A DNA stretch of 59,295 bases, counting the filler. It is 6 parts of 6 records of this genome, joined end to end, with 100 filler letters (N's around TTAATTAATTAA, not from the genome) between each part and the next. Parts side by side here need not be neighbours in the genome. Positions count along the whole stretch, not along the records: positions 1 to 10,147 come from SRR2962707_5196; 5 more parts are not named here. The stretch is one strand, 5' to 3'. Made by a program: the position numbers and the translations under genes. This document shows positions 52 to 37,652 of this stretch, piece after piece. The first letter of the stretch is position 1. Every line of letters starts with the position of its first letter. The notes under the pieces are model-generated. The model worked only from the letters and a program-made list of their open reading frames with translations, ran no database searches and had not been told where the DNA came from.

Positions 52-480
52 AGCCTCGCTCGCGCAGACTCGCGAAGACGAAGGCGAAGACGAAGACCCA
101 CTCACGCACGAAGCCCTGCGTCACAAACGAAGCGGAGAAGGTGCGGGAGAGCAGAGCAGAGCTCGAAACGAATGATTTTTTGTTGGATTCATGCTTGCTT
201 GTTGAGGGTTGTCTCTGGGTGGCGGGGTGCGAGAACGAAAAGTTGCAAGGACGAAAACGAAAAGTTGCAAGGACGCGTCCTGCTACCTCGTGTGCCGGTC
301 ACACCGTTGCAGGGGGATGACGTCTTTCGTCGTCCGAAGAACACCCCGGTTCGCCCTCACTCACACGTTGTGGACAGGCCTCGCATGCTTCTTCGTTTCT
401 ACCGAATGAAGCGTTGCTTCACTTCGCGTGCCAGCCGAATGAGGGCCTGATAGTAGAGGCTCACTCGAGATCGAGTGAGC

Positions 481-3400
481 ATGCCGGTGCTGCACAAAGT
501 TCATTCTGTGCAGTCAGTGCAGCAAAGCCGAAGCCTCAGTGGCAGCACCCCCCAAAAGCCTTCACACAATGCTTGTGTTGACAGTGCGCTGTTTTTGTGC
601 CTGGTTGGTGTTTCATCGTGGGCGGTCATGTTCTTGTTCTACTCGCTGGTTGTTGACGCCGTCGTTACTGCGCAAGAAGGGTCTTTTGCGAACGTGGCGC
701 GAGTTGATGCATCAGACTCAAACACATTCTTGAATGCAACTCTGAACGAAGCCTACGAAGCAGCAACGTTTGCGACCATTCTATTCCAGGAGTACAATGA
801 CGGATTTTTCGATGCAGCTCTGCTCGGCTGGGAGTCGACAGTGTGGACAACGGCAGGGGTGCTGGCCAAGTCCTTGAGCTACTACCACTCACTGTCATCG
901 CTCGTGGCAGTGTCAGGAGATGGAACCGTCGTTGTGGTGGCACATGCGCCCCATTCATCGAGTCATCCATTGCTGGGGGACTTCTCAGTCCACGTTGTAG
1001 ATGCCTCAAACGTAAGCGACCCAGTCGTCTTTGTGGGTGAGTTCAGCGGTGCGAGCGCAGCTCTTGTTCCATCGTGGAACAGCAGCATTGACAGCTCGCT
1101 TACCTCGATAGCGTTTTCCGCACATCCTGCAATTCTGAGCATCCTGCAGCATTCGCCGATTTCCGACGACCTATTGCATTTTGGTCAGGCTTGGCAGGTT
1201 GCAGACACACCGCTTTTGGTTGCCCCAGACCACAGCGCTCCAGTGGTCACGTATGCAGCGAATGTTTCGACAAAATGTGTTCGCAATTGCAACGCAAGCT
1301 CAGTCCACTACGTGCATTCAGCTCGGGCGAAACCAGTAACTGTGATAGCTGAACTTGAGGTTTCGACGCTGCAGGCGCAATTGGTCAAATGGGTGTCGAA
1401 ATATAGCGCGTTTGTTGGGCTCCCTGTCGACTTTGAGTACACACTCAACGGAAAAATGGTTGCCTCGGTCACGCAATTGAATGCTACTGGAACAGAATCA
1501 TGGTCAGAACTTGACACCCAGTACAACCACCTCACCACCAATGCAAGCAGAACGAGTGGGCAAGGGGCTATTCCCACAATATGCTCGGCTGGTTATGGGG
1601 AATCCATGCACGTTGGCGCTGCATCTTCGGCCTGGAATGTAAGTCTTGCCTTCATGGATGTGTCAAAAAACTTTTCCTCCGCATGGGGAGCAACTCGCCT
1701 CGTCCCAGACTCGATTTTGGCAAACTACTATGCCCTATCAGCACGGAACATAGCGCGGCTGGCCCACCCAAGAGTATCATGGGCGTCTGTCGAGCCTCCT
1801 GCGCACCACCGCACTGACGGGCTTGTGGAATTTCCCAATGCCACTACATTTCCCTCCATTACTACGCGCAACTCCTCTTCTCCGTCGACTCCTTGGACTC
1901 AGGTGGATTGGGAGATTCAGCTTCCATGCTACGATCCGCGTTCCACAGTGAAGCTAGCAATGTCGGCAGAGTCGATGTGAGTACATTTGAGCCATCGATT
2001 GTGTGAGCGCAAACACATGTTAGCTTCCTTGTGGCAGTGGTGATGGATGGGCCCACTGCTCCGTGAATGGCTTGGTGCTTGCTGTGCTGTGCTGTATAGA
2101 TTTGCGGCCCAACGAATGGGCTTTGTTGGGCGAACGGTACAAATCGTGTCGCTAGTTTGCGAGCTACTGGCTCTGTTGCTTGTACTTGCAGCTGCTGCTG
2201 TTTTTGTTTTTTGCGTTGATGAAACCAACTCAAGCGGGGCTGCTTCAACCACCGCCGACCGTAGAGAAAAAGTCTCGAGAAAGTGGGAGAAGGTCCAACT
2301 GTTTGTCTTGCAGAAACGGCGCAAGCAGCTTAATACGCGGTTGATCACGCACCAAGCACTGCTCTTGTGTGCAATGGCAATGTTCGTACTGTGGCTAGAA
2401 TACATACGTTGTGCTGCCACCCGAATGTGCGCATTGGCGGGAATTTCGTCACTTGAAAAATCGCTTGGGACCGTGAACTGGCCAGGTATCTGGCTGGGGC
2501 ATTCTTGATGATATGGTGGAAGCCGACAATTGTACGCCCTCTTGTGGCAGCGTCGTTTGAAGCCCACGCTCGTATTGTTCAGTTTGAGGTTTCCGAAATT
2601 TTTGAGCGGGCTGAACAGTTCAGCCTCATGACCAGCTCTGCCTTGACACTTGACAATGTGTTTAACCTCACGAGTTCTGCAGTTGCAGCCAGTGTTTCGT
2701 ATGTTTCCAAGCTTGGCATTTTGCTGTGCATTTTCGTTGTTGTCGGCTTGTGTTCATGAAAGAACGCAGCATGCGTGAATTGTTGTGATCCTGCGTCGAG
2801 CTTTGAATCGCCTCATCAAAACCTTGTGCTGCACTGAATGTCGACGACATTGCTTCGCTCTGCCATCCGTGCCTTTTGCTCAGCGGTGACGACGAATTGT
2901 TATCACTAGGCTCCTGCCTCCAGTTGCTGGACACGGAGTCCGGTGCTGCCGAGCAGTGCCTTTTCGGCTACAACTTTGTTCGCAATTCAACCATCCAATT
3001 GAAGCTGCTTCAATTCTTTGCCAGCGTAACGCATGACTTTGTCGCAGAAATTTTGCTTGTGCCAAGCAGCAATTCTTTTGTCCAAGTTTCACGGTACATC
3101 CATGTCATGCTTGGGTAGCACACTTGCAGTCACGTGTCGGTGCAGTTCCCCTTGTAATCGCTTGCAATGAAATGCGTCACGCATTAAGGATATACGTATG
3201 TGTCTGCACATTGAAGATACACGCTGGAAGATGAGGATGACCCTGGTGACGTGGATACCGAGTACATCAAGCTAATTCGTGCCCGCACTGTGAACATCGC
3301 AGACGCCAACACCGCATCGGTTTCATGTCAGGTCGATTTAGCCATGCCAGGCGATGGAGGCAGTGGCATCGCTGCTCAAGAGTTCGTCGCGGCGCAGCTG

Positions 3401-6400
3401 GTGGTTGCCAAGAAAGTGCCGTTGTGCGGCGTTGCTGTTGATGTTATTTGGTTTTTGTGCATGCATGGCCGTGCGTGGCCTAGTTTTTATAAAGAGATCG
3501 ACGACAATGATGAAAACGGCTCCACTTTTTACAACGGCACTATTGACGTTCCAGACTCTGTGTGCGCTGCAATGTGCGTCAATTACCTTTGTCAAGTACA
3601 TGCTCTGCTGATCAGGGTGCACATTGACGTGATTGCAAAGTGTTGCGCCTTGTCCAATCCGGTATCCTTTCATTGCGTCGTTTCATTGAACCCACACAAA
3701 CCGCAGGTACACCCAATCTGTCGCTTCTGAGCTTGCTGGCTGGTCAGAAGTGCGCCAATTCAACATATCAAGAGTCCAGTCCTACTTTCCTCACATGGAA
3801 GGAACCGCACGGAGCAAGCTGATCACCTCATACGTGTCCAAATGGGACACCGCCCTATCGTTGTCGTCTGGGACCGCATTTGGTGGAGACACGTCTTCAC
3901 CTGTCCAGCAGCTCGACTCTTTCGTCGTCTTTGGAGGTGATTTGCACGCCATCAGCGTTGTGTTGGAAGGTGAGTCTACGCTCTGGGAAGGCACGGTGGC
4001 ATACTTGAGCCAGGACCAATACGGCGGTCTTCTCATTGCAGCATCTACCAGCGATGTTGTCCACGAGAACGGCTATCGCCTCGAAGCAGAAGATTCAGGG
4101 AGTTTATTAGTTTCAAAGACAGCAACAAGTTTACACGCGTGGCATAGCGCCGGGATGTCTGTTTTGGCGAGCGATTGGATGCTGGAAGAATGGTACTCGA
4201 ACAATCAGAACGCCACGTCCAGTTCCGCACGTGAACCTGATCCACGCGGGAGCGTGCAAGACGACTCCGCTTGCGCACCCATTCTTGACACTTCGGGGAG
4301 TGCGATTTTTGCCCATGCAGGGTCCGTCTTGCATTCATCTGCGTGAACGAATTTGATCTCAACCTCATTCAGTGCTTGATTGGCCAATCGCACATTTCAC
4401 TACCTGTCACCCAGGTATCTGACGGCCAGGGGTGCACAGCAAGTGCCAACGCCTGTGTCCTTACTTCCGTACATCATGCCTTCCATCAACGGACGCCGCT
4501 TCAAGGATTCTGCTGGCAGCATTTCAGTCGGCGTTGCCGATGGGCTAGCGGGAGCTGGCACATCTTTGGAAGAAGACTTGCGGTTCTGCTTTGTAACATC
4601 CGTGCCAATCAAACACCAGTTACTTATCCGCGAAGCGTCCGAAGCCCTGTTGTGTCTCGTGTTCTCCGTCCTTTTGTGCTTTGGAATATTCAACGTCGGC
4701 CGCGTTGCATTCAATCATGGTCGCCGAGAGAATGTGAACAAAATCTTACGGGTTGGATCATGGAAGACAAAACACGGCTCAGTTGCTTATTACGAAGAGC
4801 TTGACGAAAAGATCGACGAATTCCGTGAGGCCCTTGGTGATTTATCGAGTCGGGTTCGTCAGTGCATTGGTGATATTTCGAGCTGGTATGTTTTTGCTTG
4901 GAAATCTAGGTTCTTGTTTATTTGCTCGTGACTGCGCAATGGTGGTTGCTGCCCTTGTCAGGAAAGAATTGAACGAGCTTCAATGTACATTGAATCCCTA
5001 AACGACTCGGACTCAGACAGTACGAAGCGCGTTGCGCGTGAGCTATACTACGACCGCACAAGCATCAAGTGGCCTCTCACCCTGTACGACATTTATTCAT
5101 CGAACTGGTACGCATCGTACTGCCGCACATGCTTGCATTCAAGCCGTCACGCCGATGAGCGCATTTCTTCTGTGGTTCTCACCCGCACGTATGCACAACT
5201 TCGCGCTACTGGTGCTTTTTACGATGGTGTTCCTAGGTATTCACTGGTCATGCATCTTGCTTGCCTGGTGCTTATCGTTCTCATCGCCTTTGAGCCACCA
5301 AATGCAGAGCTTGCCTGTGCGCGGCCAGCGTTCTACGTCGGTGTTGATGCGTGCAACACCTCACTGATTTGGGAAGCTGAATCACCTCCTAAATGGGTGA
5401 TTCTTCTCACGGTTGAGGCCGTCACGAATACCTTTCTCTTGGTTGATATCGTTATTCGTGCTTTGACGTACGTTGAGATGCGAACCACATTGCTGTTGTA
5501 CGTCACCCACAGAAGCGAAAAATAATGTGCTTGCTTCACCTCGCATTATTCTTACGGATGGGCATTAGATACGGCATTGGATCCTGGGCGCCCATCAAAA
5601 ACGTAGACGACCATTTCAAGCCTGAACGACGCGACGTCACAATGACACGCTTTGCGTTTCAATCCTTGCTCTGGCTTGACTTTGTAATGGCTGCGATCTG
5701 GGGACCGTTTGAGTGCGTTATCATCCTGGCACTGTGAAGGGTTTGTCGTGACACCTGCGCAATTCACACTTACAGTTGTCACTGCCACTTGCAACTGCTG
5801 CTGCAACGATATGTGATGGCAGGTATATGCGCTTTTTTCGGTTCTTACGTCCGTTGCTATACATCTGGCGCTTTGAGCCGTACCGAAACTCTCTCATGCA
5901 CTTTTTTCAAACGGTGACTGGCGTTGGGAGCGTCATTGCTTTAGTCTTTATTGTCATCTTTGTGGGTGCCACCATTGCACGCGCCGGATTTGAAGGCTCA
6001 ATGAGCACTTCCCCTGACACAGAGTTTCAGCTGTTGGTTCTTAACGTCGACACGGGCTTCCAGGCTTTCCTCACCATGTTTACGCTTATGACTACTGGAG
6101 AAAATATCATGGACCTGGTGTATGGCGTAAGTGACACATCACAGGCGTGGCTACGAGAGTACGTGTATGGTGCTGTCGGCGACCGCTGAGGTTCTTTGGA
6201 TTGCGCCAGGCACAAGTACGATCGGTGCCGATGAATTGGTCCTATTCTCACATTTCATTGGCATGTGTGACTGCAGGTACTTGGCCCCTTTTCTATTCTT
6301 CCCCCTGTGCATGGTGGGCATTTACCTCCTCGCAGGTCTCATGATCGCAGGCTTTCAGGAAGAATTCATGCAACGCTTTATGGACAAGGTATTAGCAGTG

Positions 6401-9400
6401 GGTTCGCATTCTGTGCTCGCTCGATTGCCCTTTCGGCCTTGTTCAAGTTGAATTTGTGCAATTTTCATTCGTGAATTGTTCTGTGTCCCAGGTTGACAAG
6501 CGCGAGCGAAAATTTGATGATGTGTGTGCATATGCGTACGCGCTCCTGGACACCAACGAGTCTGGAAGTCTGAGCCATTCGGAATTTCGCAGCTTCATTA
6601 AAAACATCATGGCAAAAAGGACGCGATACGACCTGCAGGAGTGTTGCGGGGGCGGCGAAACCGCACCAGAAGGTAATTGGGTCCAGTTCATGTTGCTTGT
6701 GTGCCATTTTGTTCATCGAAACCGCAATGAAGATTTTTTCTGTCTCGTCGTGTGACTGGAACCGAATGGCGTTGTTGATTCCGTGCAATCCTCTCGCGCT
6801 GAGACATGTTTGAACGGCTGTATGGCAGATACTTCCGCTATTCCACCCAACAAAGTCATCCCAATCGATCTTCGCCGTGATGGGTCCAAGGACGGGACGC
6901 ACATCCAAGGCGCTCAGGTACAAGCTGCACTTAAGTGGAAAAACAAGGCGAAGGATAAAGTGAGCGAGAAGGAGTCACAAGAAGCTGCGCTCGTGGATTC
7001 GGTATTCGACGTAATCACATTCGACCCCAATGCCATGGACGATGATGTGGACGATGGCGTAGTCGCAACGGAGGCCGCTGCTTCCAAAGCTGAGACCAAC
7101 ACCAATGCGTCGTCTGCTGCGAAAGTCCAATCAAACACCCATCGCCGCTTGTCACTTGTATGTCACGTTTTGCTGTGCCGTGTAATGTATTGTTCCTCAC
7201 GAATGAACTTTGTGATACTTTGCTTGGACAACATTTTGCACATTAATACTGACAACAGTAATGCTGTGGGTTCCATGTGCATTGCCTCCATGCTCCATGT
7301 AGATGCACGGGTCAAATCATGCTGAGTACACAGCAGGAGACGACCATGTTCCATTGCAGCAGTTCATCCATATCGTGAAGAAGTGGAACTCGTTCCGCCA
7401 ACACTATACTGTTAAGGAGTTAGCTGTTGCGCTCCAATTTTTTGTGTCTGGCAGTGGGGCCGGTGGAACCCAAGCAACTGCAGGACGAAGCAAAGGCCAA
7501 GCATCAGCGCGATCCGTCGCGAATCGCCTTTGGTTCGGGAAGTTCCTTTATGGGCCTGTGGGACGTGCTCGCGTGGCAGTGCAAGCCATCATTGCAAATC
7601 CCATCTTCACTTGGGCAACGACCACGTGCTCCATCTTCTACGTGCCATTGTTGGGCTTCACGGTTTCAGTTCTCGACACGCCTATCAACGATGACGTTCA
7701 CGACGATGATGCGATTCGAAACACGACAGCGAATGGAGAGGCCGTTCTCAGTTGGTCTGAGGCCGTGTATTGGACTGAGTACATTGTGTGGGCTTTTTTG
7801 GTGCTCTTTGCGGTCGAATTTGCCCTGAAGCTCTTCGCGCACACACCTCTTCGTTTCTGGAATCATTACGACCTTGGGCTCCGCTACATCAATCGCGTGG
7901 ACCTGACCATGTTTTGTTCTTGTACTACAGCGTACGTTCAATCCCTTCTTCAGCCGTCAGTGCACAGCTGTTGAGCACGAGATCACGCTCACACGCACAT
8001 GTCAAAAATGTCCTTGCCGTTAAATAGGTACGTGATCAGCCTTACTATGCTGAATGCACAACGGACGGTTTTTGAGCTCCGCTTCATCTGGTTATCAGTG
8101 GTGTCGCTTCGAACCACGTTTCTGGTGGAAAAAGTGCGGAAGTCTGTCATCATGATGGGCATCGCAATGCCGCACTTCGCCTCAATCCTCATGGTGCACG
8201 TCGCACTTCTTCTACTCTTTGCGCTGATGTGCATGGAAATGCTTGGTGGAAAGTTTAGCCCTGTCTTTAACACGGAGCCAGTTTGCCATTTTGACAATCT
8301 TGGTGCCTCCATGACCACGTTTTTCACACTCATGATTGGCGAAGGCTGGCAGTACGTGTTCGCAAGTGTATCTTTGTGTGATGCGGAAGTTTGAGATGTT
8401 CGTGCTGCTATTGGCGATTGAGTTGAACATTGGCTTGATCCAACTGGGCTAAATCTGTGATGTAGGTACGTGATGATTAAAGGTATCGACGGCAACTTGC
8501 AGATGGAACTTCTCATGGTATTTTTCGTCGTTTATACCATGATGGCAACACTTATCATTGTCAACTTGATGATGGGCATCGTTGTCGATCTCGTCGTGTC
8601 GCTGCAATCAGCTTCAGAGAAGGAACTTTGGTTTGACTCTGCGAAAGCGCTTACAGACAAATACGCTGCAAAGAGCACAGTCGTTCACGATCCCGTGCTG
8701 GCGGTGCTTCTGAGAAAGCAGAAGATCAAGTCCAAAAAGGACAAAAGCGACACTCGCCACAGTGACCATATCAACTATCAAAATGCTCGAAGTAGCATTG
8801 CCGCGCTTGTTAGCAGTGCACCACATGATGAAGGCGAAAACGTCCTTGCTGCGGAAGATCTTGCTGCACTGGAGCGACCTCCAGAAGAAGCAATAGGGCC
8901 GACGTTCAGCATTCTCACGCGCGCCCTCGCGACATACGTGCACCACAAACAAAAGGTACAGCGAGCGAAGGCGTTCGGACTTGACTCATCCGACTCTGAT
9001 TTGGATTCTGACCTCGAAGCGGCGGAGAAACTTGCAAGAAAGCGAGAGCGCCGGGCAAGGCGAAGGGCCAGTGGCTCGAAACAGACATCGTCTTCTGACA
9101 CTTCTTCTAGCGACGATACTGAACAGAAGCAAAGCGACAGTCGCGGCAAGAATAAGAAAAAGGTGAGAAAGAGCAAACAAAAAACGAACAATGAGGCACT
9201 TCCCAATGGACAAGATGGCGAGGACGCAAAGCAAGTGGAATTTCCAGTTCCAACGGCAACGAGACAAGTCGCCATCGCAGTCGGTGCTAATCCAGATACG
9301 GTGGCGACAGCTGCGTTGAAGGAACAAGAGCAACGCTTGCGCCAATGGGAGGCGAGGCTCCAACGTAGGGATGCAGAACTGACCTCTCGCGAACAACGTC

Positions 9401-9804
9401 TCCAGCGAGACCAAACGCAACTACAGCGGGATCGCCAGCAGCCGCTGCGTTCGCCTTCGCAGGCGCCGCAGCTGCGAGCTGAGGATCACAATTTGAAAAA
9501 AACGAAAAAGCGAAATCCGAAATCTGCAGCACCTGTGAATACTTTGCCAGAGGGGAAGCTCACCATTGGCGGCTTTGGTGGTTCTTTCGAAGAGCGTGCT
9601 GAAAAAATGCAGCGCCTCGAGGCGAAAATCGAGAAGCGAAAGGACGATGAAGCAAAGCGGCGCAAAAAGTGGAAAAAAAAATCACAAAGTCGCCATGCTG
9701 CAGATCAAACTGTCAACGATGGCGTTGCGCGTACGGACTCGAGCAACAGTCGGCGGAGACCGCGTAAGGTGCGCAAACCCGTGGCAAATGTCCACCGCAG
9801 CTGA
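481..9804 (+). CDS. Multi-exon eukaryotic gene: two-repeat (TPC-like) voltage-gated cation channel with long N-terminal TM/extracellular extension; exon boundaries only partly resolved
   Basis: Repeat I: S1 end LIAFEPP, S4 YMRFFRFLRPLL, pore FLTMFTLMTTGEN, S6 FFPLCMVGIYLLAGLMIA. Linker EF-hand DTNESGSLSHSEF (6549-6587). Repeat II: S2 FAVEFALKLFA, pore HFDNLGASMTTFFTLMIGEGW, S6 FFVVYTMMATLIIVNLMMGIVVD, then a charged coiled-coil tail. Frame changes coincide with GT..AG introns (e.g. 1977-2037, 4322-4414, 4854-4961, 5108-5236). The channel call is strong; a single transcript from 481 is inferred. Confidence 0.75.
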
Positions 9805-9978
9805 TGCGTCCAACGCGAGTCCCTGGGCCAACTGCTGGAACGGCGGATCATCTGTGTTTGTGTTTATAAATTATCACGTATTCATCACGAACAGTGTCGA
9901 TAAGTTCTGCCGAGCCTACTGAGCCACGCGTTGCACCATTCACCTTTTGTAGCCCCTAAAAATGCAGCGCATGCATTC

Positions 9979-10147: not shown

Positions 10148-10247
10148 NNNNNNNNNNNNNNNNNNNNNNNNNNNNNNNNNNNNNNNNNNNNTTAATTAAT
10201 TAANNNNNNNNNNNNNNNNNNNNNNNNNNNNNNNNNNNNNNNNNNNN
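10148..10247. other. Artificial contig linker (N44-TTAATTAATTAA-N44)
   Basis: Identical 100-nt spacer with stops in all six frames, repeated five times in the window; base composition changes abruptly across it. Confidence 0.99.
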
Positions 10248-10448: not shown

Positions 10449-11711
10449 CTAATTCTTAATAACTCGACTACTTAAAATAGTACGTTCTTTGAGGAGGAGT
10501 GGAACCACAATAGAAAAGAAAACGATTCCGTTAAAACGCACCAACATAGATTCGAATATTAACGCTAGAAAAAGTGCTAAAAACACTGAAAACTCATTAA
10601 AACTTCTACGGGTATGCAACGTTAGATTGGTAAAAATAACCATTAAAACAAACACTCCAATCAATCCTGTTTGCAACCAAGTTTCTAAAAACTGATTATG
10701 GGCATTATATCTATGTTTATAATTTTCTGTATACCCTAAGTCGTTATAACCCTCTATCAAAACATCATGCGCATCCCCTACTCCATATCCAAATAAAGGA
10801 GCTACTTCAATAGTTTTTATGGCTGCCTTCCAAGACAACATTCTTTCTTTCCAAGAAATAGTAGGATTCACTTCAGCTACCTCATCTGGGAAGTTATTTA
10901 TAGGATTTACTATTCTAGGATTACTTATAAAAATAAGGGTACTTAAACCAAATACTAGAATTAATAAATACTTTTTGCTTTTATCTGCTACCTTAAGAAT
11001 CAATAAAATCGACATACAAAATAGTGTTATATAAGCTGCTTTGGAGGCCAATAAAAAAAGGTAGGCAAATAAAATAATAACTGTTAGAAACCGCCAAATA
11101 GTATTAAGTTCGTTTTTAAGGTAGTAGCTTAAAACTAATAAAATATACAAAGAAACATACCCTGGATTAATTAAACTCGAAAACTGTATATGCATAAAAA
11201 ATTTCCAGCCTATAGCTAAACTCTTCCAAAATGACACATTTGAAGGCAAACTATTTGCTATTAAAAAAGCATCATAAATTACAATGGTAAGGTTTATAAA
11301 AAAGGAAATTACTAATCCATACAGTAAAAAGTTAAAGAGCTTTCGAACAGATAACGCATCTTCTTTTAAAAAGAGAAATATTATTGGAAAGAGTAATAAA
11401 GTTAACGACCGCTGGATAAGATGCCAACCATCTGAAGTATTCTGAGTATAAATTATACTCACAACCAGTATTACAAAATATAAAGGAAAAAGTAATAATA
11501 CCCGATTTTTAGAATCGTACTTTTTTTCGCTTTTAAAAATATTAATACAACCACAAACAATAGCTACACTAATAAAAGGAGTAGGAATATTAATATCTAT
11601 AGGAAGAAAGAAAAAAGCAATGTACAAGCTATTCCAAAATATACGTTGCAACAAGCTGCTATTTTCATCTTGATAAAATGCAGCTTTTATGTTTTTTATA
11701 GTTGCAATCAA
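10449..11711 (-). CDS. O-antigen ligase / Wzy_C-family polysaccharide polymerase
   Basis: About 12 TM segments; periplasmic loop with R..SW, PLFGYGVG and YNAHNQFLETW (HN motif). Confidence 0.85.
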   Translation of the reverse strand: MIATIKNIKAAFYQDENSSLLQRIFWNSLYIAFFFLPIDINIPTPFISVAIVCGCINIFKSEKKYDSKNRVLLLFPLYFVILVVSIIYTQNTSDGWHLIQRSLTLLLFPIIFLFLKEDALSVRKLFNFLLYGLVISFFINLTIVIYDAFLIANSLPSNVSFWKSLAIGWKFFMHIQFSSLINPGYVSLYILLVLSYYLKNELNTIWRFLTVIILFAYLFLLASKAAYITLFCMSILLILKVADKSKKYLLILVFGLSTLIFISNPRIVNPINNFPDEVAEVNPTISWKERMLSWKAAIKTIEVAPLFGYGVGDAHDVLIEGYNDLGYTENYKHRYNAHNQFLETWLQTGLIGVFVLMVIFTNLTLHTRRSFNEFSVFLALFLALIFESMLVRFNGIVFFSIVVPLLLKERTILSSRVIKN

Positions 11712-11759
11712 TAGTATTTTAGTTTTTTATATTATAAGTGTTATTTAATTAAAAGCCCT

Positions 11760-12887
11760 TCACTTCTTTTTAAATTTACCTTTAAATCCATCTACTTTTC
11801 TCTTAAAGAATATCTTACGCTTAAGGTTAGCGAAGCTATAGTCTAATCTATAAAAAAGATATGCTAAAAACACTACTGTAAGCACTAAAGCTATAATCAT
11901 CCATAAATTATTAGATGTACTACCTAAAACAATAAGAAGTACAACAAAAATAAAATTAAAACTAGCAATAATAAAACTAGCTTGTTGATGACTTAAATTT
12001 AAATAATCTACTAAAATATGGTGTGTATGGTTTCTATCTGGTGAAAATGGCCCTCGCTTATTTACAATTCGCAATGTAAACACACGAGCCGTATCAAACA
12101 AAGGCACTATTAATATTCCAATTGCAACTAGCGGTGCATTCTCTAATAAAAATGGTAATTGTTTATATGAAGTAGGCTTTAAAGCCAAAAATTTTAAAGT
12201 AAACATTGCTATCATAAAACCAACAATAAGAGAACCTGTATCTCCCATAAATATTTTACGCGTTGAAGATAAATTATATCCTAGAAAAGCAATTAAACAA
12301 GCATTAAGCGCTATACACAGTAATGCGTAAAAATACTCATTGGACATATAAAATATGGTGGTGTATAACATTAAAATAACTATCCCAACCATAGCTGCTA
12401 AACCATCTATCCCATCAATAAGGTTATACGCATTTATAATTGTAATCATTAAAAAACCTCCAATAAGCAAGTATAAAAAATAAGGGATTTCATTAATATT
12501 AAGAAATCCATGCAAGGAAGTAATTACAAAACTATCACTTGCTAAAACAAACGAAACAGCCATTACTTGTGCAGCCAATTTTGTTAAAGGAGATAATACT
12601 ACCAAGTCATCCTTTAAACCAACTATAAACAAAATTGTCAATCCTGGAATTAAGTAAATAGCTTCGTTATGAAGATCTTTGTCTTTTAAAAAGAAAATGG
12701 CAAAAATTAAACAATAGAAAAAAGCAACTCCCCCTAATGTTGGTGTTACCTGAGTATGAGAACTTCTATCATTGGGATTGTCCATTAACTTTTTATACTG
12801 TACAACTCCTATAATTTTAGGAATTGTTAAGTATGTTAAAAGAAAAGCACCTACAAATAATAATACGGCAGTTTCTAAAAAATACAT
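11760..12887 (-). CDS. wecA: Undecaprenyl-phosphate GlcNAc-1-phosphate transferase (WecA/TagO, MraY-like family 4)
   Basis: RSSH..TPTLGG, GLKDD, NAYNLIDGIDGL, KIFMGDTGS and DRNHTHH motifs; multi-TM. Confidence 0.9.
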   Translation of the reverse strand: MYFLETAVLLFVGAFLLTYLTIPKIIGVVQYKKLMDNPNDRSSHTQVTPTLGGVAFFYCLIFAIFFLKDKDLHNEAIYLIPGLTILFIVGLKDDLVVLSPLTKLAAQVMAVSFVLASDSFVITSLHGFLNINEIPYFLYLLIGGFLMITIINAYNLIDGIDGLAAMVGIVILMLYTTIFYMSNEYFYALLCIALNACLIAFLGYNLSSTRKIFMGDTGSLIVGFMIAMFTLKFLALKPTSYKQLPFLLENAPLVAIGILIVPLFDTARVFTLRIVNKRGPFSPDRNHTHHILVDYLNLSHQQASFIIASFNFIFVVLLIVLGSTSNNLWMIIALVLTVVFLAYLFYRLDYSFANLKRKIFFKRKVDGFKGKFKKK

Positions 12888-12891
12888 ATTC

Positions 12892-13596
12892 TTATAATTT
12901 ATTAAGTACAATTTTAATAAAAAACTGTCCTAAATTTAACTGTCTTCTCCACCTTGTAGGTTCTTTTAACAATCTATAGAACCATTCTAACCCTAATTTT
13001 TGAAAACTTTTCGGAGCTCTATTTATTTTCCTTGTATACACATCAAAACTTCCACCTAATCCCATGTACAATGTAGGGTACTCATTTAAAAATTGTTGCA
13101 TTAAAAACTCTTGTTTAGGGCTTCCCATAGCAATAAAAACTACATTTGGCTTTTTTTTAATTACATCTTTCAATAATGCTTCTTCCTCACCTTCTTTTAA
13201 ATAGCCATCCCTATAACCAACAATGTTAATTTTAGGGAAGTCTTTTTTAAGTTGAGATACTGTTTTTTCAATTACTTCTTTTGAAGCTCCTACAATATAA
13301 AAAGATTTGGTAGTTTCAAATTTTTTAATGATATCTAACCAAAACTCAGCACCCGCTATTTTAGTTGCATTTATCCCTTTTCGTTTTAAAGCCAATACCG
13401 CACCAATTCCGTCTGGATATCCAATATTTTTATTAATTAAGGCCTCTAACTTAGTGTCCTCTTTATTTAATTTTTCAGCATTTAATGCAACTAATATTTT
13501 ATTTTTATCGCCAATATAGTTTAAAAACTGATTTTTAGAGGTAAAGGCATAAATCTTCTTACCTCTAATTAATGCTGACTTAATATTATTATCCAT
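12892..13596 (-). CDS. WecB/TagA/CpsF family glycosyltransferase (ManNAc/ManNAcA transferase-like)
   Basis: NAEK, YPDGIG, IAMGSPKQE, GLGGSFDV and LGLEWFYRL..EPTRWRR motifs. Confidence 0.92.
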   Translation of the reverse strand: MDNNIKSALIRGKKIYAFTSKNQFLNYIGDKNKILVALNAEKLNKEDTKLEALINKNIGYPDGIGAVLALKRKGINATKIAGAEFWLDIIKKFETTKSFYIVGASKEVIEKTVSQLKKDFPKINIVGYRDGYLKEGEEEALLKDVIKKKPNVVFIAMGSPKQEFLMQQFLNEYPTLYMGLGGSFDVYTRKINRAPKSFQKLGLEWFYRLLKEPTRWRRQLNLGQFFIKIVLNKL

Positions 13597-15858: not shown

Positions 15859-15958
15859 NNNNNNNNNNNNNNNNNNNNNNNNNNNNNNNNNNNNNNNNNN
15901 NNTTAATTAATTAANNNNNNNNNNNNNNNNNNNNNNNNNNNNNNNNNNNNNNNNNNNN
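15859..15958. other. Artificial contig linker
   Basis: N44-TTAATTAATTAA-N44. Confidence 0.99.
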
Positions 15959-17017: not shown

Positions 17018-19831
17018 ATGAGTTTGTATACAAAATATATGGAAGAAATCCAAACCCGTAAAACGGAGCTTGGATTAAACCCACAACCAATCGATAGCGC
17101 TGAGCTAGTATCAGAAATCATTAATCAAATTAAAGATACTAATAACGAGCATCGTCAAGATTCACTGCATTTCTTTATCTACAACACACTACCGGGAACA
17201 ACCAGTGCTGCGGGCGTTAAAGCACAGTTTCTAAAAGAAATCATTCTTGGTGAAGAACAAGTTGCAGAGATCACTCCAGAATTCGCATTTGAGTTACTTT
17301 CACACATGAAAGGCGGCCCATCAATTGAAATGCTAATTGATTTAGCATTTGCTGATGACGCAGCAATCGCAGCACAAGCGGCTGAAGTACTTAAGACTCA
17401 AGTATTCTTATACGATGCAGATATGGCGCGCATAAAAGCGGCATACGAAGCAGGCAACGCGATTGCAAAAGAGTTATTAGAAAGTTTCGCAAAAGCTGAA
17501 TTTTTCACAAAATTACCTGACATCGAAGAAAAAATCGATGTAGTAACCTACATTGCTGGTGAAGGCGACATCTCAACTGACTTACTGTCTCCAGGTAACC
17601 AAGCGCACTCGCGTGCTGACCGTGAATTACATGGTAAGTGCATGATCACTGAAGAAGCTCAACAAGAAATTGTTGAACTTCAAAAGAAACACCCTAACGC
17701 TAAAGTAATGCTTATTGCTGAAAAAGGCACCATGGGCGTTGGTTCATCTCGTATGTCGGGTGTGAATAACGTTGCACTTTGGGCTGGTAAACAAGCAAGT
17801 CCATACGTTCCTTTTATCAACATTGCACCTGTTGTTGCAGGTACTAATGGTATCGCACCAATCTTTTTAACCACGGTTGATGTAACCGGCGGTATTGGTC
17901 TTGACCTTAAAAACTGGGTTAAGAAAGTCGATGCTAACGGCAATACAGTTACGGATGAAAATGGCGATGCCGTTCTTGAAGAAGCTTATTCAGTTGCCAC
18001 AGGTACTGTGTTAACAATCAATACAAAAGAGAAAAAGCTTTATAACGGTGATAAAGAACTGGTTGATGTATCATCAGCATTTACACCACAGAAAGTTGAA
18101 TTTATGCGAGCTGGTGGTTCTTACGCTGTTGTATTCGGTAAGAAACTACAAACGTATGCAGCTGAAACGCTGGGTATTGACACTCCGCTTGTATATGCTC
18201 CTTCAAAAGAAATTTCACATGCAGGTCAAGGCTTAACAGCGGTTGAGAAAATCTTTAACCGTAATGCCGTAGGTGTACTATCAGATACGCCACTTCATGC
18301 AGGTTCAAATGTTCGCGTTAAAGTGAACATCGTAGGTTCGCAAGATACAACCGGCCCAATGACTGCACAAGAATTAGAAGCGATGGCTGCTTCTACGATT
18401 TCACCTCTTGTCGATGGTGCATATCAGTCTGGTTGTCACACTGCATCAGTATGGGATAGCAAAGCACAAGCTAATATTCCTAAACTAATGGCGTTTATGA
18501 ATAAGTTTGGTTTGATCACTGCACGTGACCCGAAAGGCGTTTATCACGCAATGACTGACGTTATTCACAAAGTATTGAACGACATTACAATTGACGACCG
18601 CGCAATCATCATCGGTGGTGACTCGCATACTCGTATGTCTAAAGGTGTTGCGTTCGGTGCCGACTCAGGCACGGTTGCTGTAGCACTTGCAACGGGTGAA
18701 TCAGCGATGCCAATTCCTGACTCAGTTAAAGTTACGTTTAAAGGCAGCATGGCTAAACACATGGATTTCCGTGATGTTGTACACGCTACTCAAGCGCAAA
18801 TGCTGAAGCAATTTGGCGGTGAAAACGTGTTCCAAGGCCGCATCATTGAAGTTCACATTGGTACGCTGATGGCTGACCAAGCGTTTACTTTCACTGACTG
18901 GACTGCAGAGATGAAAGCAAAAGCATCAATCTGTATTTCTAATGACGAAACACTGATCAAGTCAATTGAGCTTGCTAAATCACGCATCCAAATCATGATC
19001 AACAAAGGCATGGAAAACGAAGCACAAACGCTGCAAGGTCTAATCGATTTAGCTGACAAGCGTATTGCAGGTATCCAATCAGGTGAAGAGCCAGCACTTT
19101 CTCCAGATGACAACGCTAAATACCACGCAGAAGTAGTGGTTGATTTAGATCAAATCGTTGAGCCAATGATTGCCGATCCAGACGTAAATAACGATGATGT
19201 TTCTAAGCGTTATACTCACGATGTGATCCGCCCTGTTTCTTTCTACAACGACAAGCCGGTAGATTTAGGTTTTGTTGGTTCGTGTATGGTTCACAAAGGC
19301 GATATGAAAATTATTGCTCACATGCTACGTAACCTAGAAAAGAAAAACGGTTCAATTGAATTTAAAGCACCACTCGTTGTTGCGCCACCAACATATAACA
19401 TTGTTGATGAGCTAAAAGCTGAAGGCGATTGGGATATTCTAGCTAAGTACGCTGGTTTTGAGTTTGACGATTCTAAACCTAAAACAGCGGCACGTACTAA
19501 GTATGAGAACATCTTATACCTAGAGCGCCCTGGTTGTAACCTATGTATGGGTAACCAAGAAAAAGCAGAACCTGGTGACACTGTTATTGCCACCTCAACA
19601 CGTCTGTTCCAAGGCCGTGTAGTAGCCGATACATCTGAGAAAAAAGGTGAATCACTACTAGGTTCAACACCGCTTGTAGTACTTTCTACTGTTTTAGGTC
19701 GTTTCCCGACTATTGAAGAGTATAAGTCTTCAGTTGAAGGTATTGACCTTACATCGTTCACGCCAGTTGAAGAAGCAATGACAACTAAATTTAACGCTGG
19801 TCAAGCAGTACCAGTAAAAGTTGTTAGCTAA
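17018..19831 (+). CDS. acnB: Aconitate hydratase B (bifunctional aconitase/2-methylisocitrate dehydratase)
   Basis: 937 aa; GSSRMS, GSQDTTGPMT, GGDSHTR, FVGSCM and PGCNLCMGNQ Fe-S ligand motifs; STRLFQGR. Confidence 0.95.
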   Translation: MSLYTKYMEEIQTRKTELGLNPQPIDSAELVSEIINQIKDTNNEHRQDSLHFFIYNTLPGTTSAAGVKAQFLKEIILGEEQVAEITPEFAFELLSHMKGGPSIEMLIDLAFADDAAIAAQAAEVLKTQVFLYDADMARIKAAYEAGNAIAKELLESFAKAEFFTKLPDIEEKIDVVTYIAGEGDISTDLLSPGNQAHSRADRELHGKCMITEEAQQEIVELQKKHPNAKVMLIAEKGTMGVGSSRMSGVNNVALWAGKQASPYVPFINIAPVVAGTNGIAPIFLTTVDVTGGIGLDLKNWVKKVDANGNTVTDENGDAVLEEAYSVATGTVLTINTKEKKLYNGDKELVDVSSAFTPQKVEFMRAGGSYAVVFGKKLQTYAAETLGIDTPLVYAPSKEISHAGQGLTAVEKIFNRNAVGVLSDTPLHAGSNVRVKVNIVGSQDTTGPMTAQELEAMAASTISPLVDGAYQSGCHTASVWDSKAQANIPKLMAFMNKFGLITARDPKGVYHAMTDVIHKVLNDITIDDRAIIIGGDSHTRMSKGVAFGADSGTVAVALATGESAMPIPDSVKVTFKGSMAKHMDFRDVVHATQAQMLKQFGGENVFQGRIIEVHIGTLMADQAFTFTDWTAEMKAKASICISNDETLIKSIELAKSRIQIMINKGMENEAQTLQGLIDLADKRIAGIQSGEEPALSPDDNAKYHAEVVVDLDQIVEPMIADPDVNNDDVSKRYTHDVIRPVSFYNDKPVDLGFVGSCMVHKGDMKIIAHMLRNLEKKNGSIEFKAPLVVAPPTYNIVDELKAEGDWDILAKYAGFEFDDSKPKTAARTKYENILYLERPGCNLCMGNQEKAEPGDTVIATSTRLFQGRVVADTSEKKGESLLGSTPLVVLSTVLGRFPTIEEYKSSVEGIDLTSFTPVEEAMTTKFNAGQAVPVKVVS

Positions 19832-21901: not shown

Positions 21902-22001
21902 NNNNNNNNNNNNNNNNNNNNNNNNNNNNNNNNNNNNNNNNNNNNTTAATTAATTAANNNNNNNNNNNNNNNNNNNNNNNNNNNNNNNNNNNNNNNNNNN
22001 N
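21902..22001. other. Artificial contig linker
   Basis: N44-TTAATTAATTAA-N44. Confidence 0.99.
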
Positions 22002-22746: not shown

Positions 22747-23850
22747 ATGGGTTTTAAATGCGGTATTGTTGGATTGCCCAATGTTGGCAAATCTACCCTC
22801 TTTAATGCACTGACAAAAACGGCTGCAGCGCAAGCAGCAAACTATCCGTTTTGTACGATTGAACCGAACACCGGCGAAGTAGCCGTGCCCGATCCACGCA
22901 TGGCAGAAATTGCCCGCGTTGCGACCTCTAAGGAGATCTTGCCGACGCGCATTAATTTCGTTGATATTGCAGGTCTCGTGCGCGGCGCGTCCAAAGGCGA
23001 AGGCCTTGGCAACCAGTTCCTCGCCAATATTCGCGAAGTAGACGCAATCGTGCACGTATTGCGCTGTTTTGAAGATGACGACATCACCCATGTTGAAGGA
23101 AAAATCGATCCCGTTTCAGACGCTGACACCGTTGAAACAGAACTCATGCTATCTGATTTAGAAAGCCTTGAGCGCCGTATCACACAGATGCGCAAGCGCG
23201 CTACGGGCACGGATAAAGAAGCAAAGTTGATTCTGCCAATGATGGAAGAAGCACTCAAATTGCTTCTTGATTCAAAGCCGGTGCGCATGCTGCTTAAAGG
23301 CCTTTCGCCAGAAGATTTGACAATCCTTAATTCGCTCAATTTGCTGACATCAAAACCGGTTCTTTATGTGTGTAATGTTGCTGAAGAAGATGCAGGCACT
23401 GGCAACGAAAAAAGCAAAGCAGTTGAAGAAATTGCCGCAAGCCAAGGCGCGCGTTCCGTGCTTATTTCAGCTGAAATTGAATCTGAAATTGCACAGCTCG
23501 ATCAAGCTGAAGCCCGCGAATATATGGATGCAATGGGCTTAGAAGAGCCGGGCCTCGACCGCCTAATCCGCGAAGGCTACTCACTGCTAGAACTGATCAC
23601 ATTCTTTACCGCAGGACCAAAAGAAACCCGCGCATGGACTGTGAAAAAAGGCTCAAAAGCACCGCAAGCAGCCGGCGTTATTCACACCGATTTTGAAAAA
23701 GGTTTCATTCGCGCACAAACCATCGCCTATGAAGATTTTGTCACTTTAGGCGGCGAAACTGGCGCAAAAGAAGCTGGCAAGTCACGCGATGAAGGCAAGG
23801 AATATGTCGTTCATGATGGTGACGTTCTGCACTTTAAATTCAACGTCTAA
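22747..23850 (+). CDS. ychF: Redox-regulated ribosome-binding ATPase YchF
   Basis: GIVGLPNVGKST, ANYPFCTIEPN, DIAGLV, C-terminal TGS domain (TAGPKE..AW, APQAAG.IHTDF). Confidence 0.98.
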   Translation: MGFKCGIVGLPNVGKSTLFNALTKTAAAQAANYPFCTIEPNTGEVAVPDPRMAEIARVATSKEILPTRINFVDIAGLVRGASKGEGLGNQFLANIREVDAIVHVLRCFEDDDITHVEGKIDPVSDADTVETELMLSDLESLERRITQMRKRATGTDKEAKLILPMMEEALKLLLDSKPVRMLLKGLSPEDLTILNSLNLLTSKPVLYVCNVAEEDAGTGNEKSKAVEEIAASQGARSVLISAEIESEIAQLDQAEAREYMDAMGLEEPGLDRLIREGYSLLELITFFTAGPKETRAWTVKKGSKAPQAAGVIHTDFEKGFIRAQTIAYEDFVTLGGETGAKEAGKSRDEGKEYVVHDGDVLHFKFNV

Positions 23851-23895
23851 AACCACGATTTAAAGCAAAAACCTGATTGAAGGCTGCAGGAAATA

Positions 23896-24588
23896 CTACT
23901 TGCTGCCTTCAAGAAGCACCCGGCGCGCATGAGAAAAATAATTGCGGCGTGTCAAAACACCAAGCACAAAAATCGTTGAAAAGAACAGTGCTTCTGGGCT
24001 GATAAACCAGCCCAGATAGGCCAGCGCGAAGAACATACCGCGCATCCCAGCGGTAAAGTGTTTGCCCGCAATAATATTCATTTCCGCAGCCATAATGGCT
24101 GTTTTACGGGCTTCCTGCGGCGTTTCCTTTTTGATCATCGGCACGGCGCCCATCAGGATCGAGCAATAGTTGAAAAGCCTGTAAGACCAACCAAATTTAA
24201 AAAACGCATAGATAAAAATCGCGGTTAGACCAAACACGCGCATTTCATGCAATTCGCGCGAAACCTGCGCTTCGACCGGCAGGTCTCTATAAATTTCCAT
24301 AACCATATCGGTTGCGCCCAAAAGAGCGAAAGAACCACCAATTGCAAAAATGGTTGTCGAGGCAAAAAACGCCGCGCCATTTTGCAACCCTTGCAAGATG
24401 GATGTGTCGATCATTCGCAGATCGCGTTCACTCATCTCTAACATCCATTCGCGGCGGCGATGGGCCATAAGTGCGGCGACAGACTTATATTTGAATGAAC
24501 TATGGCTGCTTATTATTTCAAAGATAAACCACGCAAAGAGGAAGAACCCCAGCGCGATCCAGTCCATTTGGGTCAATGCAAACATCAT
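23896..24588 (-). CDS. DUF599-family membrane protein
   Basis: RR.WM..M..R..R..D, FFAST, FFKFGWSYRLFNY, HF..GMR..FF...LGWF pattern. Confidence 0.8.
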   Translation of the reverse strand: MMFALTQMDWIALGFFLFAWFIFEIISSHSSFKYKSVAALMAHRRREWMLEMSERDLRMIDTSILQGLQNGAAFFASTTIFAIGGSFALLGATDMVMEIYRDLPVEAQVSRELHEMRVFGLTAIFIYAFFKFGWSYRLFNYCSILMGAVPMIKKETPQEARKTAIMAAEMNIIAGKHFTAGMRGMFFALAYLGWFISPEALFFSTIFVLGVLTRRNYFSHARRVLLEGSK

Positions 24589-24647
24589 AATTATATCCGT
24601 CTAAATTTGCGAAGTTTCAAAACACTTCAATCAAGACTGCTGGGAAA

Positions 24648-25187
24648 TCAGTGTCCTTCGTATTCAATCAACGTGCGCACGGGCACGCCAAGATCTTCGA
24701 TCTTTTTGCGTCCGCCAAGTTCAGGCAAATCAATGATAAAGCAGGCTGCAACGACATCCGCACCCATTTGCTGCAACAGTTTAACCGCGCCTTCAGCGGT
24801 GCCACCCGTCGCGATAAGATCATCGACCAAGATTACCTTTTCGCCCGGTGTCACTGCATCACGGTGCATCTCCATTTCGTCGACGCCATATTCAAGGCTA
24901 TAGGCGATGCGCACAGTGTCATAAGGCAATTTGCCCTTCTTACGGATGGGAATAAATCCAGCCGACAACTGATGGCTCATAGCGCCGCCCAAAATAAAGC
25001 CACGCGCTTCAACGCCCGCAACTTGGTCAACCTTCATGCCCACATAGGGATGCACAAGCTCGTCAATGGAGCGGCGAAACGCCTTGGCATCGCCAAGCAA
25101 TGTCGTGATATCGCGAAACATGATACCCGGCTTGGGATAGTCAGGGATATCTCTAATCGCGGCTTTGAGTGTTTCCTGCAAAGTCAT
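24648..25187 (-). CDS. apt: Adenine phosphoribosyltransferase
   Basis: [33 protein letters not shown] and PRPP loop [10 protein letters not shown]. Confidence 0.97.
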
Positions 25188-25226
25188 GTCATCTCCATCG
25201 CTGGTATAGTGTTCCAAATCTTAGAC

Positions 25227-25252
25227 AAAGAAAAGGGCGCTGTGAGCGCCCC
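25227..25252 (-). terminator. Terminator after petC
   Basis: GGGCGCT-CAC-AGCGCCC hairpin followed by TTTTCTTT on the minus strand. Confidence 0.7.
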
Positions 25253-25281
25253 ATTCAATTCAATAATCAGTATGCGGTCAC

Positions 25282-26145
25282 TTAGTGTTCAAGCTTCGCG
25301 TAAATCTGTTTCTTCGTGATGTACATCAAGATTGAGAAGATGATCAGGAAGATCACGACTTTAAAGCCAAGCTCTTTGCGTTCTTGAAGTTTTGGCTCAG
25401 CAGCCCACATCATGAATGCAGCAACGTCTGTTGCCATCTGGTCAACAGTCGCTGTTGTACCGTCATCAAACTCTACCTGACCGTCAGAAAGCGGAGCCGC
25501 CATAGCAAGGGCTACGCCCGATTTAAAGTAAGGGTTGTAATGCGTACCCTCAGTAATTTCAACGCCAGCTGGCGCATCCTGATAGCCGGTTAGCAATGCA
25601 TGGATGTAATCAACGCCGCCTTCTTGATACTGCGTGAACACATCAAAGATGAACTGCGGGAAACCACGCTCAACACCGCGCGCTTTTGCGAGCAATGAAA
25701 AGTCTGGTGGATACGCACCGCCATTGGCAGCAACCGCTGCTTCGCGGTTAGCGAATGGACCCGTGAAGTGGTCAGCCGATGTGCCTGGGCGTGTAAACAT
25801 TTCGCCATCAGCATTTGGGCCGTCTTGAACATCATATTCTGCTGCAATCGCTTTGATCTGGCCTTCATTGTAGCCCAAATCTTCAAGCGTGTGGAATGCA
25901 ACGCGGTTAAGCGTATGACAAGCAGAACAAACTTCGCGATAGACTTTAAAGCCGCGCTGCAACTGACCTTTATCATAGTGACCAAATGGACCTGCAAAGC
26001 TCCATTTTAGCTCATGAGGATGTTCAAGCGGATAGTGAACAGTGCCACCAGTCGCTTCTGCGGCGCTAGCAACGCTAAGCGTTGCACCCAGCGAAAAAAT
26101 CGCTGCGGCAGCAATAGCACCAAATTTTGCAAACATATTTTTCAT
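25282..26145 (-). CDS. petC: Cytochrome c1 of bc1 complex
   Basis: Signal peptide, LQRGFKVY, CSACH heme motif, PPDFS, C-terminal TM anchor. Confidence 0.96.
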   Translation of the reverse strand: MKNMFAKFGAIAAAAIFSLGATLSVASAAEATGGTVHYPLEHPHELKWSFAGPFGHYDKGQLQRGFKVYREVCSACHTLNRVAFHTLEDLGYNEGQIKAIAAEYDVQDGPNADGEMFTRPGTSADHFTGPFANREAAVAANGGAYPPDFSLLAKARGVERGFPQFIFDVFTQYQEGGVDYIHALLTGYQDAPAGVEITEGTHYNPYFKSGVALAMAAPLSDGQVEFDDGTTATVDQMATDVAAFMMWAAEPKLQERKELGFKVVIFLIIFSILMYITKKQIYAKLEH

Positions 26146-26176
26146 TTTACCAATCCAATTTATTTGCGTCAGGCGC

Positions 26177-27466: not shown

Positions 27467-27477
27467 CGATAAATCTC

Positions 27478-28032
27478 CTAAGCCTGGTCTGTGCCAATCA
27501 CGAGGTTTGTTTCGCTCGTGAAGACATATGGTGGAAGAGGAAGGTTGATCGCCGCAGGACCACGAATAATACGTCCGGTCATATCGAACACGGAGCCGTG
27601 ACACGGGCAATGCCAGCCTTCAGCTTGTTGATCAACAACATTAGGAATACATCCAAGGTGCGTACAGTTAGCAGAAACGATAACCCAGTTTTTGGTTGTT
27701 TCGCCGCCAAGACGCGTATCAATCGGCGCAAAGTCTTTCATGTCGCTTGCTGTAAGCGCAGAAGCTGCATCAATTTCTGCTGTCGTCAAATTACGCACGA
27801 AATATGGCTTACCGCGCCATGTCACAACGATCGCTTGACCTGGCTCAACAGCTTCAAGGTTGATATCAACAGGCTGGCCAGCAGCTAGAACAGCAGCGTC
27901 TGGACGCATCTGATCAATAAATGGCCACGCAGCAGCAGCTGCGCCAACTACACCCATCATGCCAGTTGCAACATAGATAAAATCGCGGCGTGTAGGCAAT
28001 TCATTCAGTTCGGTTGTCGTCGTGTCGTTCAC
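27478..28032 (-). CDS. petA: Rieske Fe-S subunit of bc1 complex
   Basis: Tat motif TRRDFI, CTHLGC and CPCHGS boxes; GTG start at 28032 with AGGA RBS. Confidence 0.96.
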
Positions 28033-32125: not shown

Positions 32126-32126
32126 T

Positions 32127-37632: not shown

Positions 37633-37652
37633 TATTAAAGAGTCAGCTCTTA

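Follow-up and report, generated by a model that had tools for sequence, protein, structure and literature searches.

Channels of the voltage-gated superfamily normally obtain extracellular information through separate subunits or receptors. Two-pore channels (TPCs; animal TPC1-3, plant TPC1 and the diatom TPC and TPCL) have two repeats of six transmembrane (TM) segments per chain and start with a short cytosolic N-terminus. The alpha-1 subunits of voltage-gated calcium channels (Cav) have four repeats and are accompanied by alpha2delta, a separate subunit, so that the pore is paired with a large extracellular domain. Bacterial receptors with dCache_1, dCache_3 or PDC sensors, among them chemoreceptors and histidine kinases, follow the order TM helix, extracytoplasmic domain, TM helix and cytoplasmic output, the output being a kinase or a methyl-accepting domain. 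Here, we analysed a stretch of DNA of 59,295 bases, referred to as the window, and describe a gene on the plus strand of its first contig (1-10147, G+C content approximately 0.51) that encodes a two-repeat channel preceded on its N-terminal side by a module with four TM helices and a pair of ectodomains. This marine protist gene is a real, conserved and undescribed fusion, and the organism it comes from is probably a heterotrophic stramenopile. No description of a two-repeat channel fused to N-terminal ectodomains was found in the literature searched, mostly by titles and the opening parts of abstracts. Unless stated otherwise, nucleotide positions are those of the window, features lie on the plus strand and residue numbers are those of the window protein.

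The gene model was based on public sequencing runs aligned to the first contig (the DNA run X1, and X2 and X3), on stop-to-stop open reading frames (ORFs) of the plus strand combined with Pfam, and on direct reading of the sequence around proposed junctions. Run X2 contributed two spliced contigs, record 9 covering 222-4320 and record 10 covering 4414-9842, and since these contigs are spliced the run derives from cDNA; run X1 spans 1207-9554 in one piece with no joints. The X2 contigs hold 17 GT..AG joints, 15 of them listed, and from the arithmetic of the records we deduced that the two unlisted ones lie at 3573|3707 and 4321|4415. For every joint only a single position satisfies GT..AG; the donor GTNCGT recurs and most acceptors read CAG|GTA. 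Removal of the introns, which measure 93-185 nucleotides (nt) each and of which seven are located in the N-terminal region, leaves a message of 7578 nt whose single ORF of 2426 amino acids (aa) runs from the ATG at 481 to the stop codon at 9802-9804, and three in-frame stops precede the ATG just on its 5' side. The coding sequence of this single gene (481-9804) is distributed over 18 exons defined by the cDNA joints: the first nine are 481-1976, 2100-2381, 2486-2698, 2884-3093, 3217-3381, 3484-3573, 3707-4321, 4415-4853 and 4962-5107, and the last nine are 5237-5467, 5569-5712, 5823-6158, 6277-6388, 6492-6672, 6829-7157, 7303-7931, 8028-8351 and 8466-9804. The transcript extends over at least 222-9842. 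An earlier sequence-only reading of this locus had proposed that a gene model be built from cDNA, and the 17 joints do resolve into one frame of 2426 codons.

The N-terminal region and the channel are linked across the intron at 4854-4961 (108 nt, GT..AG), which the sequence-only reading had named as the one joining the halves in frame; the cDNA joint 4853|4962 is exactly the junction it had predicted. This intron is only part of the link, as a 93-nt in-frame intron with a stop codon (4322-4414, GT..AG) must also be removed, which joins ectodomain 2 to the exon of the fourth TM helix. Its removal is confirmed by P0005, a EukProt transcriptome protein of 2022 aa that is 100% identical to aa 396-2386 of the model (1991 aa, 0 gaps) and that spans all junctions from 1976|2100 onward, including both half-linking joints 4321|4415 and 4853|4962. 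P0005 is at least another assembly or allele than X2, because it shares with an X1 DNA contig, but not with the X2 cDNA contig, a length difference of 2 nt at 9673; it may still stem from the same RNA data as X2. The variant alters the last approximately 40 residues, and together with a 1-nt difference at 548, seen in one X1 contig only, it represents alleles or homopolymer errors.

The same architecture is encoded in the genome of a second organism. Protein P0004 (1932 aa) aligns to aa 1-2046 of the window protein in a single high-scoring segment pair with 54.7% identity, and its gene was located on the metagenome contigs L111 and L112; these share 99.9% identity over 12 kb, and one of them bears a seawater label. 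On L111 (711-6509) residues 1-1932 of P0004 are encoded by one uninterrupted genomic ORF of 1932 codons, and the same ORF is found on L112. When a single 84-nt intron with GT..AG borders close to the 3' end is spliced out, the L111 product grows to 2209 aa and shares 52% identity with window aa 1-2301, so that this orthologue has a single intron where the window gene has 17. Module and channel are contiguous in the genomic DNA of this second organism, and an artefact of transcript assembly is therefore excluded. The fusion is transcribed, spliced and conserved in a second organism, and it is practically certain that a four-TM, two-ectodomain module is joined in a single chain to a channel. The sequence-only reading had proposed such a chain of receptor-like modules and channel, which is borne out by the cDNA joints, by P0005 across the junctions and by the uninterrupted frame of the orthologue; the search that it had recommended for other proteins with the same fusion was answered by P0004 and P0005. 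Further relatives are represented by the fragments P0002 (883 aa) and P0003 (117 aa), and low-depth pieces in run X3 are 90-99% alike. An exhaustive phmmer search with the exon-1 protein against 1.84 billion representatives returned 3 matches, namely itself, P0002 and P0003, which is weak evidence for few relatives because that library missed P0004 and P0005. Word-based searches yielded P0004, P0005 and one marginal nematode channel only. We also considered that the 17 introns of the window gene could be recent copies of one element, and this was ruled out since no similarity among them was found (blastn-short, E<=0.01).

The window protein of 2426 aa has 16 TM segments in the order TM1, ectodomain 1, TM2, basic loop, TM3, ectodomain 2, TM4, linker, two Ion_trans repeats and a basic coiled tail. 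TM1 (aa 36-57, 586-651) has its hydropathy peak of 2.13 at aa 35-53 and is 59% identical in P0004. Ectodomain 1 follows (aa 58-512, approximately 455 aa, 652-2139 including the intron 1977-2099; 45% identical to P0004) and is closed by TM2 (aa 513-537, 2140-2214; peak 2.85 at aa 517-535). The loop between TM2 and TM3 (aa 538-583, 2215-2352; 58% identical to P0004) is short and basic as had been noted from the sequence, with 11 Lys plus Arg against 5 Asp plus Glu. TM3 (aa 584-604, 2353-2519; peak 2.15 at aa 585-603) is split by the intron 2382-2485 (joint 2381|2486), and the junction sequence is the same in P0004 and P0005. Ectodomain 2 (aa 605-1098, approximately 494 aa, 2520-4637) contains 5 introns including 4322-4414 and is 57% identical to P0004, TM4 (aa 1099-1118, 4638-4697; peak 2.43 at aa 1101-1119) is 60% identical, and the 100-residue linker from TM4 to the first segment of repeat I (IS1; aa 1119-1218, 4698-5105 including the intron 4854-4961) is 65% identical with 1 gap. 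The four TM segments marked by the sequence-only reading thus coincide with hydropathy peaks. Its TM3 string needs correction, since only the first 11 residues are coding and the rest runs into the intron 2382-2485; the real TM3 continues in exon 3.

Both ectodomains are flanked by hydropathy peaks, as expected of an extracytoplasmic position between two TM helices, the orientation itself being a prediction. Ectodomain 1 has 11 N-x-S/T sequons and is acidic (37 Asp plus Glu versus 21 Lys plus Arg), and ectodomain 2 has 6 sequons and is likewise acidic (63 versus 27). The Cys residues kept in P0004 are 4/4 and 5/6, respectively, or 9/10 overall. Sequon density is 2.4 and 1.2 per 100 aa in these loops versus 0-1.0 in the parts placed in the cytosol, with the exception of the TM2-TM3 loop, where one sequon in 46 aa gives a density of 2.2. 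Because the large loops are acidic and sequon-rich with conserved Cys, and by the positive-inside rule, we predict an N-terminus on the inside, two large loops that face the extracellular space or a lumen, and a cytosolic position of the TM2-TM3 loop and of the linker.

The 2x6TM channel recognised in the 3' half of the gene is clearly present as two Ion_trans repeats. In the window, Pfam Ion_trans was matched by the ORFs 5752-6189 (E 4.6e-11) and 7978-8394 (E 7e-8), and two Ion_trans stretches were also found by Pfam in P0004 and P0005. Four homologous repeats were not found; there are two Ion_trans stretches only, with no Ion_trans signal in the N-terminal 1100 aa. Repeat I (aa 1219-1490, 5106-6379) is 73% identical to P0004 and repeat II (aa 1761-2030, 7594-8613) is 76% identical. 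The S4 segment of repeat I (5824-5871) carries Arg 1347, Arg 1350 and Arg 1353, a basic residue every three positions, and the S4 of repeat II has few charges with irregular spacing. Alignment to Cav pore loops (P-loops) with HMMER identified Glu 1437 (6100-6102) in repeat I and Glu 1978 (8341-8343) in repeat II, both at the selectivity position of a T-x-E-x-W type motif and both conserved in P0004. The linker between the repeats (aa 1491-1760) contains an EF-hand-like loop of 12 residues (aa 1513-1524, 6549-6584; Pfam EF-hand_7 E 0.001), and repeat II is followed by a basic low-complexity C-terminal tail (aa 2031-2426 plus stop, 8614-9804; 86 Lys plus Arg, 57 Asp plus Glu). The EF-hand linker had been part of the sequence-only reading, and a loop is indeed there, canonical in the window protein; the best match of its ORF (6396-6755) scores 19.8 bits versus a Pfam cut-off of 30, and position 12, Glu in the window protein, is Ala in P0004.

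The closest match of P0005 in a PDB sequence search with phmmer was repeat II of Cav1.2 alpha-1C (E 3.8e-17), followed by other Cav types, bacterial Nav and T-type Cav, with TPC2 at E 9e-6 only. The best PDB match of repeat II was also Cav repeat II, and TPCs accounted for 0/40 matches of the orthologue repeat II at E<=1. The channel is accordingly best described, as far as sequence comparison goes, as two-repeat and Cav-like. The name 'two-pore-type' given to it by the sequence-only reading holds, judged by sequence, only for the number of repeats and not for the family (Cav alpha-1 E 3.8e-17 versus TPC2 9e-6), because the PDB matches, the P-loop Glu and the unconserved EF-hand point away from TPC. 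Cav alpha-1 subunits are the closest sequence relatives of the window repeats and share the aligned P-loop Glu, and with alpha2delta they also resemble the window protein in concept, as a pore paired with a large extracellular domain. They differ in having four repeats where the window protein has two, and alpha2delta is a separate subunit, whereas the window module is in the same chain, held by four TM helices, and is without a VWA, VGCC_alpha2 or Cache match in Pfam. The window protein resembles TPCs in having two 6-TM repeats per chain and, presumably, in forming a dimer, but similarity to TPCs in sequence is weak, the P-loops are Cav-like, repeat I has the better voltage sensor and the channel is preceded by a stretch of approximately 1120 aa that contributes four TM helices and both ectodomains (1218 aa before IS1). 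Plant and diatom TPC1 also have an EF-hand-like loop after the last segment of repeat I (IS6) according to the part of PMC11085791 available, a pair of EF-hands there and one sub-threshold loop here. The channel core belongs to a familiar type, and what sets the protein apart is its fused module together with the likeness of a two-repeat channel to Cav.

The nature of the ectodomains is less clear. They had been read as degenerate dCache sensor domains on account of YDPR/PDPR and WSE motifs, and these motifs are present (YDPR at aa 484-487, PDPR at aa 997-1000, WSE at aa 341-343 and 831-833). CYDPR is common to the window protein, P0004 and P0002, but PDPR is not kept in P0004. Language-model neighbours provide the single positive lead. 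For ectodomain 2 (P0004 residues 545-1010), 17/30 nearest clusters carry a family, and all of these are bacterial periplasmic sensors at scores of 0.93-0.94 (dCache_1, MCP-like_PDC_1/Cache_3-Cache_2, dCache_3, HK_sensor_dom_bact and GAPES1). A PDC/Cache-like sensor fold is a serious candidate for ectodomain 2, from which we lean only slightly away. The degenerate dCache idea thus gains from the neighbours of ectodomain 2 and loses from Pfam, from profile comparison and from the lack of PDPR conservation. In their layout of TM helix, extracytoplasmic domain, TM helix and cytoplasmic output the bacterial receptors resemble the window module, and they are also the families of those 17 clusters; they differ in that no hidden Markov model or profile similarity to them was detected, in that the window has two tandem units, each nearly twice the length of dCache, and in that its output is an ion channel, not a kinase or methyl-accepting domain.

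Other approaches to the fold gave little. AlphaFold2 models of exon 1 (5-row alignment) and exon 7 (3 rows) had a mean predicted local distance difference test (pLDDT) score of 35.5 and 31.0, respectively, and were unusable. A Foldseek search of the exon-1 model against PDB had its best match at E 0.26 and TM-scores <=0.11, with none at E<=0.001, a result that is meaningless given a pLDDT of 35.5. Complex prediction with ectodomain 1 and ectodomain 2 of L111 scored 0.00, and with the partner's own fold uncertain this is evidence neither way. A tandem duplication was considered and not supported, as the two ectodomains have no significant likeness to each other (blastp E 0.086 over one 42-residue stretch; hhalign P 0.22). 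An alpha2delta-type module was ruled out, since neither P0004 nor P0005 has a VWA match in Pfam at E<=1; no VGCC_alpha2 match was found in the ectodomains by Pfam either. A VWA insertion is reported for every eukaryotic dCache_1 protein found, in the part of PMC8915833 available. The ectodomains have no detectable relatives beyond a handful of marine sequences and are for that reason candidates for new folds or very divergent Cache domains.

The explanation that we favour, by a small measure, is that of one gene for a 16-TM protein in which the ectodomain module is a built-in regulatory or sensing unit of a two-repeat Cav-like channel. Two chains would pair to bring together four pore domains and a ring of four Glu in a Ca2+-permeable pore, an arrangement proposed because of the known four-fold architecture of the channel superfamily, and a dimeric Ca2+-permeable channel is probably what the repeats form. 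Voltage sensing would reside in repeat I with its three Arg three residues apart, the S4 of repeat II being degenerate. The state of the ectodomain module could be passed via TM4 and the linker to repeat I, and by this route the module may modulate gating or surface behaviour, so that one chain would cover a task for which other channels depend on separate extracellular partners or receptors. A sensor function is a proposal here; gating or modulation of the pore by a ligand bound to the ectodomains is conceivable, although we rather doubt it. The most specific form of the idea is a chemoreceptor-channel in one polypeptide, with tandem PDC/Cache sensors connected to a Ca2+-selective pore via TM4 and the linker, through which a marine flagellate with a heterotrophic lifestyle would convert a dissolved cue directly into Ca2+ entry; the pore would then come from a Cav-like lineage of two-repeat channels separate from the TPCs, in which a two-domain relative of the four-domain Cav/Nav has survived. 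We consider this full version unlikely.

If ligand sensing were true, the protein would be a minimal signal-to-Ca2+ device and would represent a new gating principle for the voltage-gated superfamily. The predicted arrangement is in itself unusual, as the chain that forms the pore also contains approximately 1100 residues of conserved, outward-facing protein with four TM helices of its own. A two-repeat channel with Cav-like, not TPC-like, repeats also bears on the long-debated origin of four-domain Ca2+/Na+ channels from two-domain ancestors.

A number of results weigh against the favoured explanation, most of them concerning a sensory role of the ectodomains. The Pfam check that the sequence-only reading had proposed was negative, as no relevant family, and none of the Cache families, was matched at E<=1 or E<=10 by any ectodomain piece of the window, L111, P0002, P0004 or P0005, noting that HMMER filters can drop very weak matches; the window ORFs on the 5' side of the channel likewise matched no Pfam family. 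NCBIfam at E<=10 gave nothing relevant for the ectodomains, a PDB search by phmmer at E<=10 gave nothing relevant for either, and ectodomain 2 matched 0/401 Pseudomonadota genomes. Comparison by hhalign of two-sequence ectodomain profiles with 12 full-length dCache_1 domains from 5 bacterial genomes was at chance level (P 0.38 and 0.53), the thin profiles giving it low power. The ectodomains are about 1.6-1.9 times the length of a dCache domain. The language-model lead shares 129-150 features versus 170 typical of true family members; in calibration, 4-10% of shuffled proteins reach 0.9, and the ten best named matches all agree for one third of shuffled proteins. For ectodomain 1 the neighbours were oomycete clusters without a name, at 0.76 only. 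In P0002, several hundred Ser/Thr/Ala/Gly-rich low-complexity residues are inserted between the conserved blocks of ectodomain 1, giving a mucin-like look as compatible with a glycosylated structural domain as with a sensor. In the channel half, the EF-hand is sub-threshold and not conserved, with no Pfam EF-hand match in P0004 at E<=1, and repeat I of the orthologue, taken alone, found no relative in PDB at E<=1.

With a real fusion, several of these observations could also mean that the ectodomains are not ligand sensors at all. They could form a structural or auxiliary module serving folding, trafficking, surface anchoring, adhesion or a glycocalyx, in a role comparable to that of the extracellular auxiliary subunits of four-domain channels, while gating would be by voltage alone. 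The failure of every sequence method (Pfam, NCBIfam, hhalign) to find a sensor family is in line with such a module, as are the high sequon density, the plausible voltage sensor in repeat I and the P0002 inserts, whose composition is typical of heavily glycosylated surface domains. It is harder to reconcile with the language-model neighbours of ectodomain 2, since all that bear a family are periplasmic sensors, and with the degree of conservation of the TM4-IS1 linker, which suggests coupling and not a passive tether. On this evidence an auxiliary module is a tenable explanation that falls short of being probable. The protein could, on the other hand, be a divergent true TPC of an endolysosomal or vacuolar membrane with its large loops luminal. 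Two Ion_trans repeats with an EF-hand-like loop right after IS6 are arranged as in plant TPC1, TPC2 is among the PDB matches, and divergent TPC-like classes are described in other stramenopiles (PMC11085791, available in part). The distance to TPC2 is nevertheless large, with Cav alpha-1 eleven orders of magnitude better, and the absence of TPCs from the 40 PDB matches of the orthologue repeat II, the Cav-type Glu in both P-loops and the EF-hand that is neither above threshold nor conserved all make a TPC quite improbable.

A rival of another kind would deny the fusion itself and take the locus for two adjacent genes, a four-TM glycoprotein and a channel, merged by an assembly or read-through artefact. 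The X2 transcript does come in two contigs that meet at 4320/4414, and the in-frame stop of the 93-nt intron would end an unspliced first product at 4346. The gap between the two contigs is, however, 93 nt long and bounded by GT..AG, 30 extra letters follow position 4320 at the end of record 9, record 10 begins at 4414 and every part of the X2 records fits the model. Both junctions are read through in P0005, the halves are one uninterrupted genomic ORF in L111 and L112, and the sequence spanning the junctions is conserved in P0004. We regard this far-fetched alternative as already refuted, and the single-gene model with a built-in module is retained.

The window as a whole is composed of six contigs joined by N at 10148-10247, 15859-15958, 21902-22001, 28536-28635 and 43966-44065 (paired 44-N runs). 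G+C content ranges from 0.27 to 0.56 among the contigs, and eukaryotic and bacterial DNA occur side by side, suggesting that the culture was not axenic or the assembly mixed. Bacterial genes encode a Wzy-type O-antigen ligase and a glycosyltransferase 4 (10449-12911), aconitase B (17018-19831), YchF, up to 80% identical to Rhizobiales genomes, with cytochrome b (22747-27610), and OmpA, a CHAT-TPR protein and two PAS histidine kinases (30110-43708). The Wzy-like ORF had no relative in the scan of genome contigs. A short tandem repeat occupies the start of the first contig (1-63). The last contig is eukaryotic and holds an unannotated ORF of 1207 aa (44200-47823) and, on the minus strand at 48936-59241, ORFs for a myosin head and, after them, long ORFs with SH3 and PDZ domains, which together probably make up a single large myosin gene.

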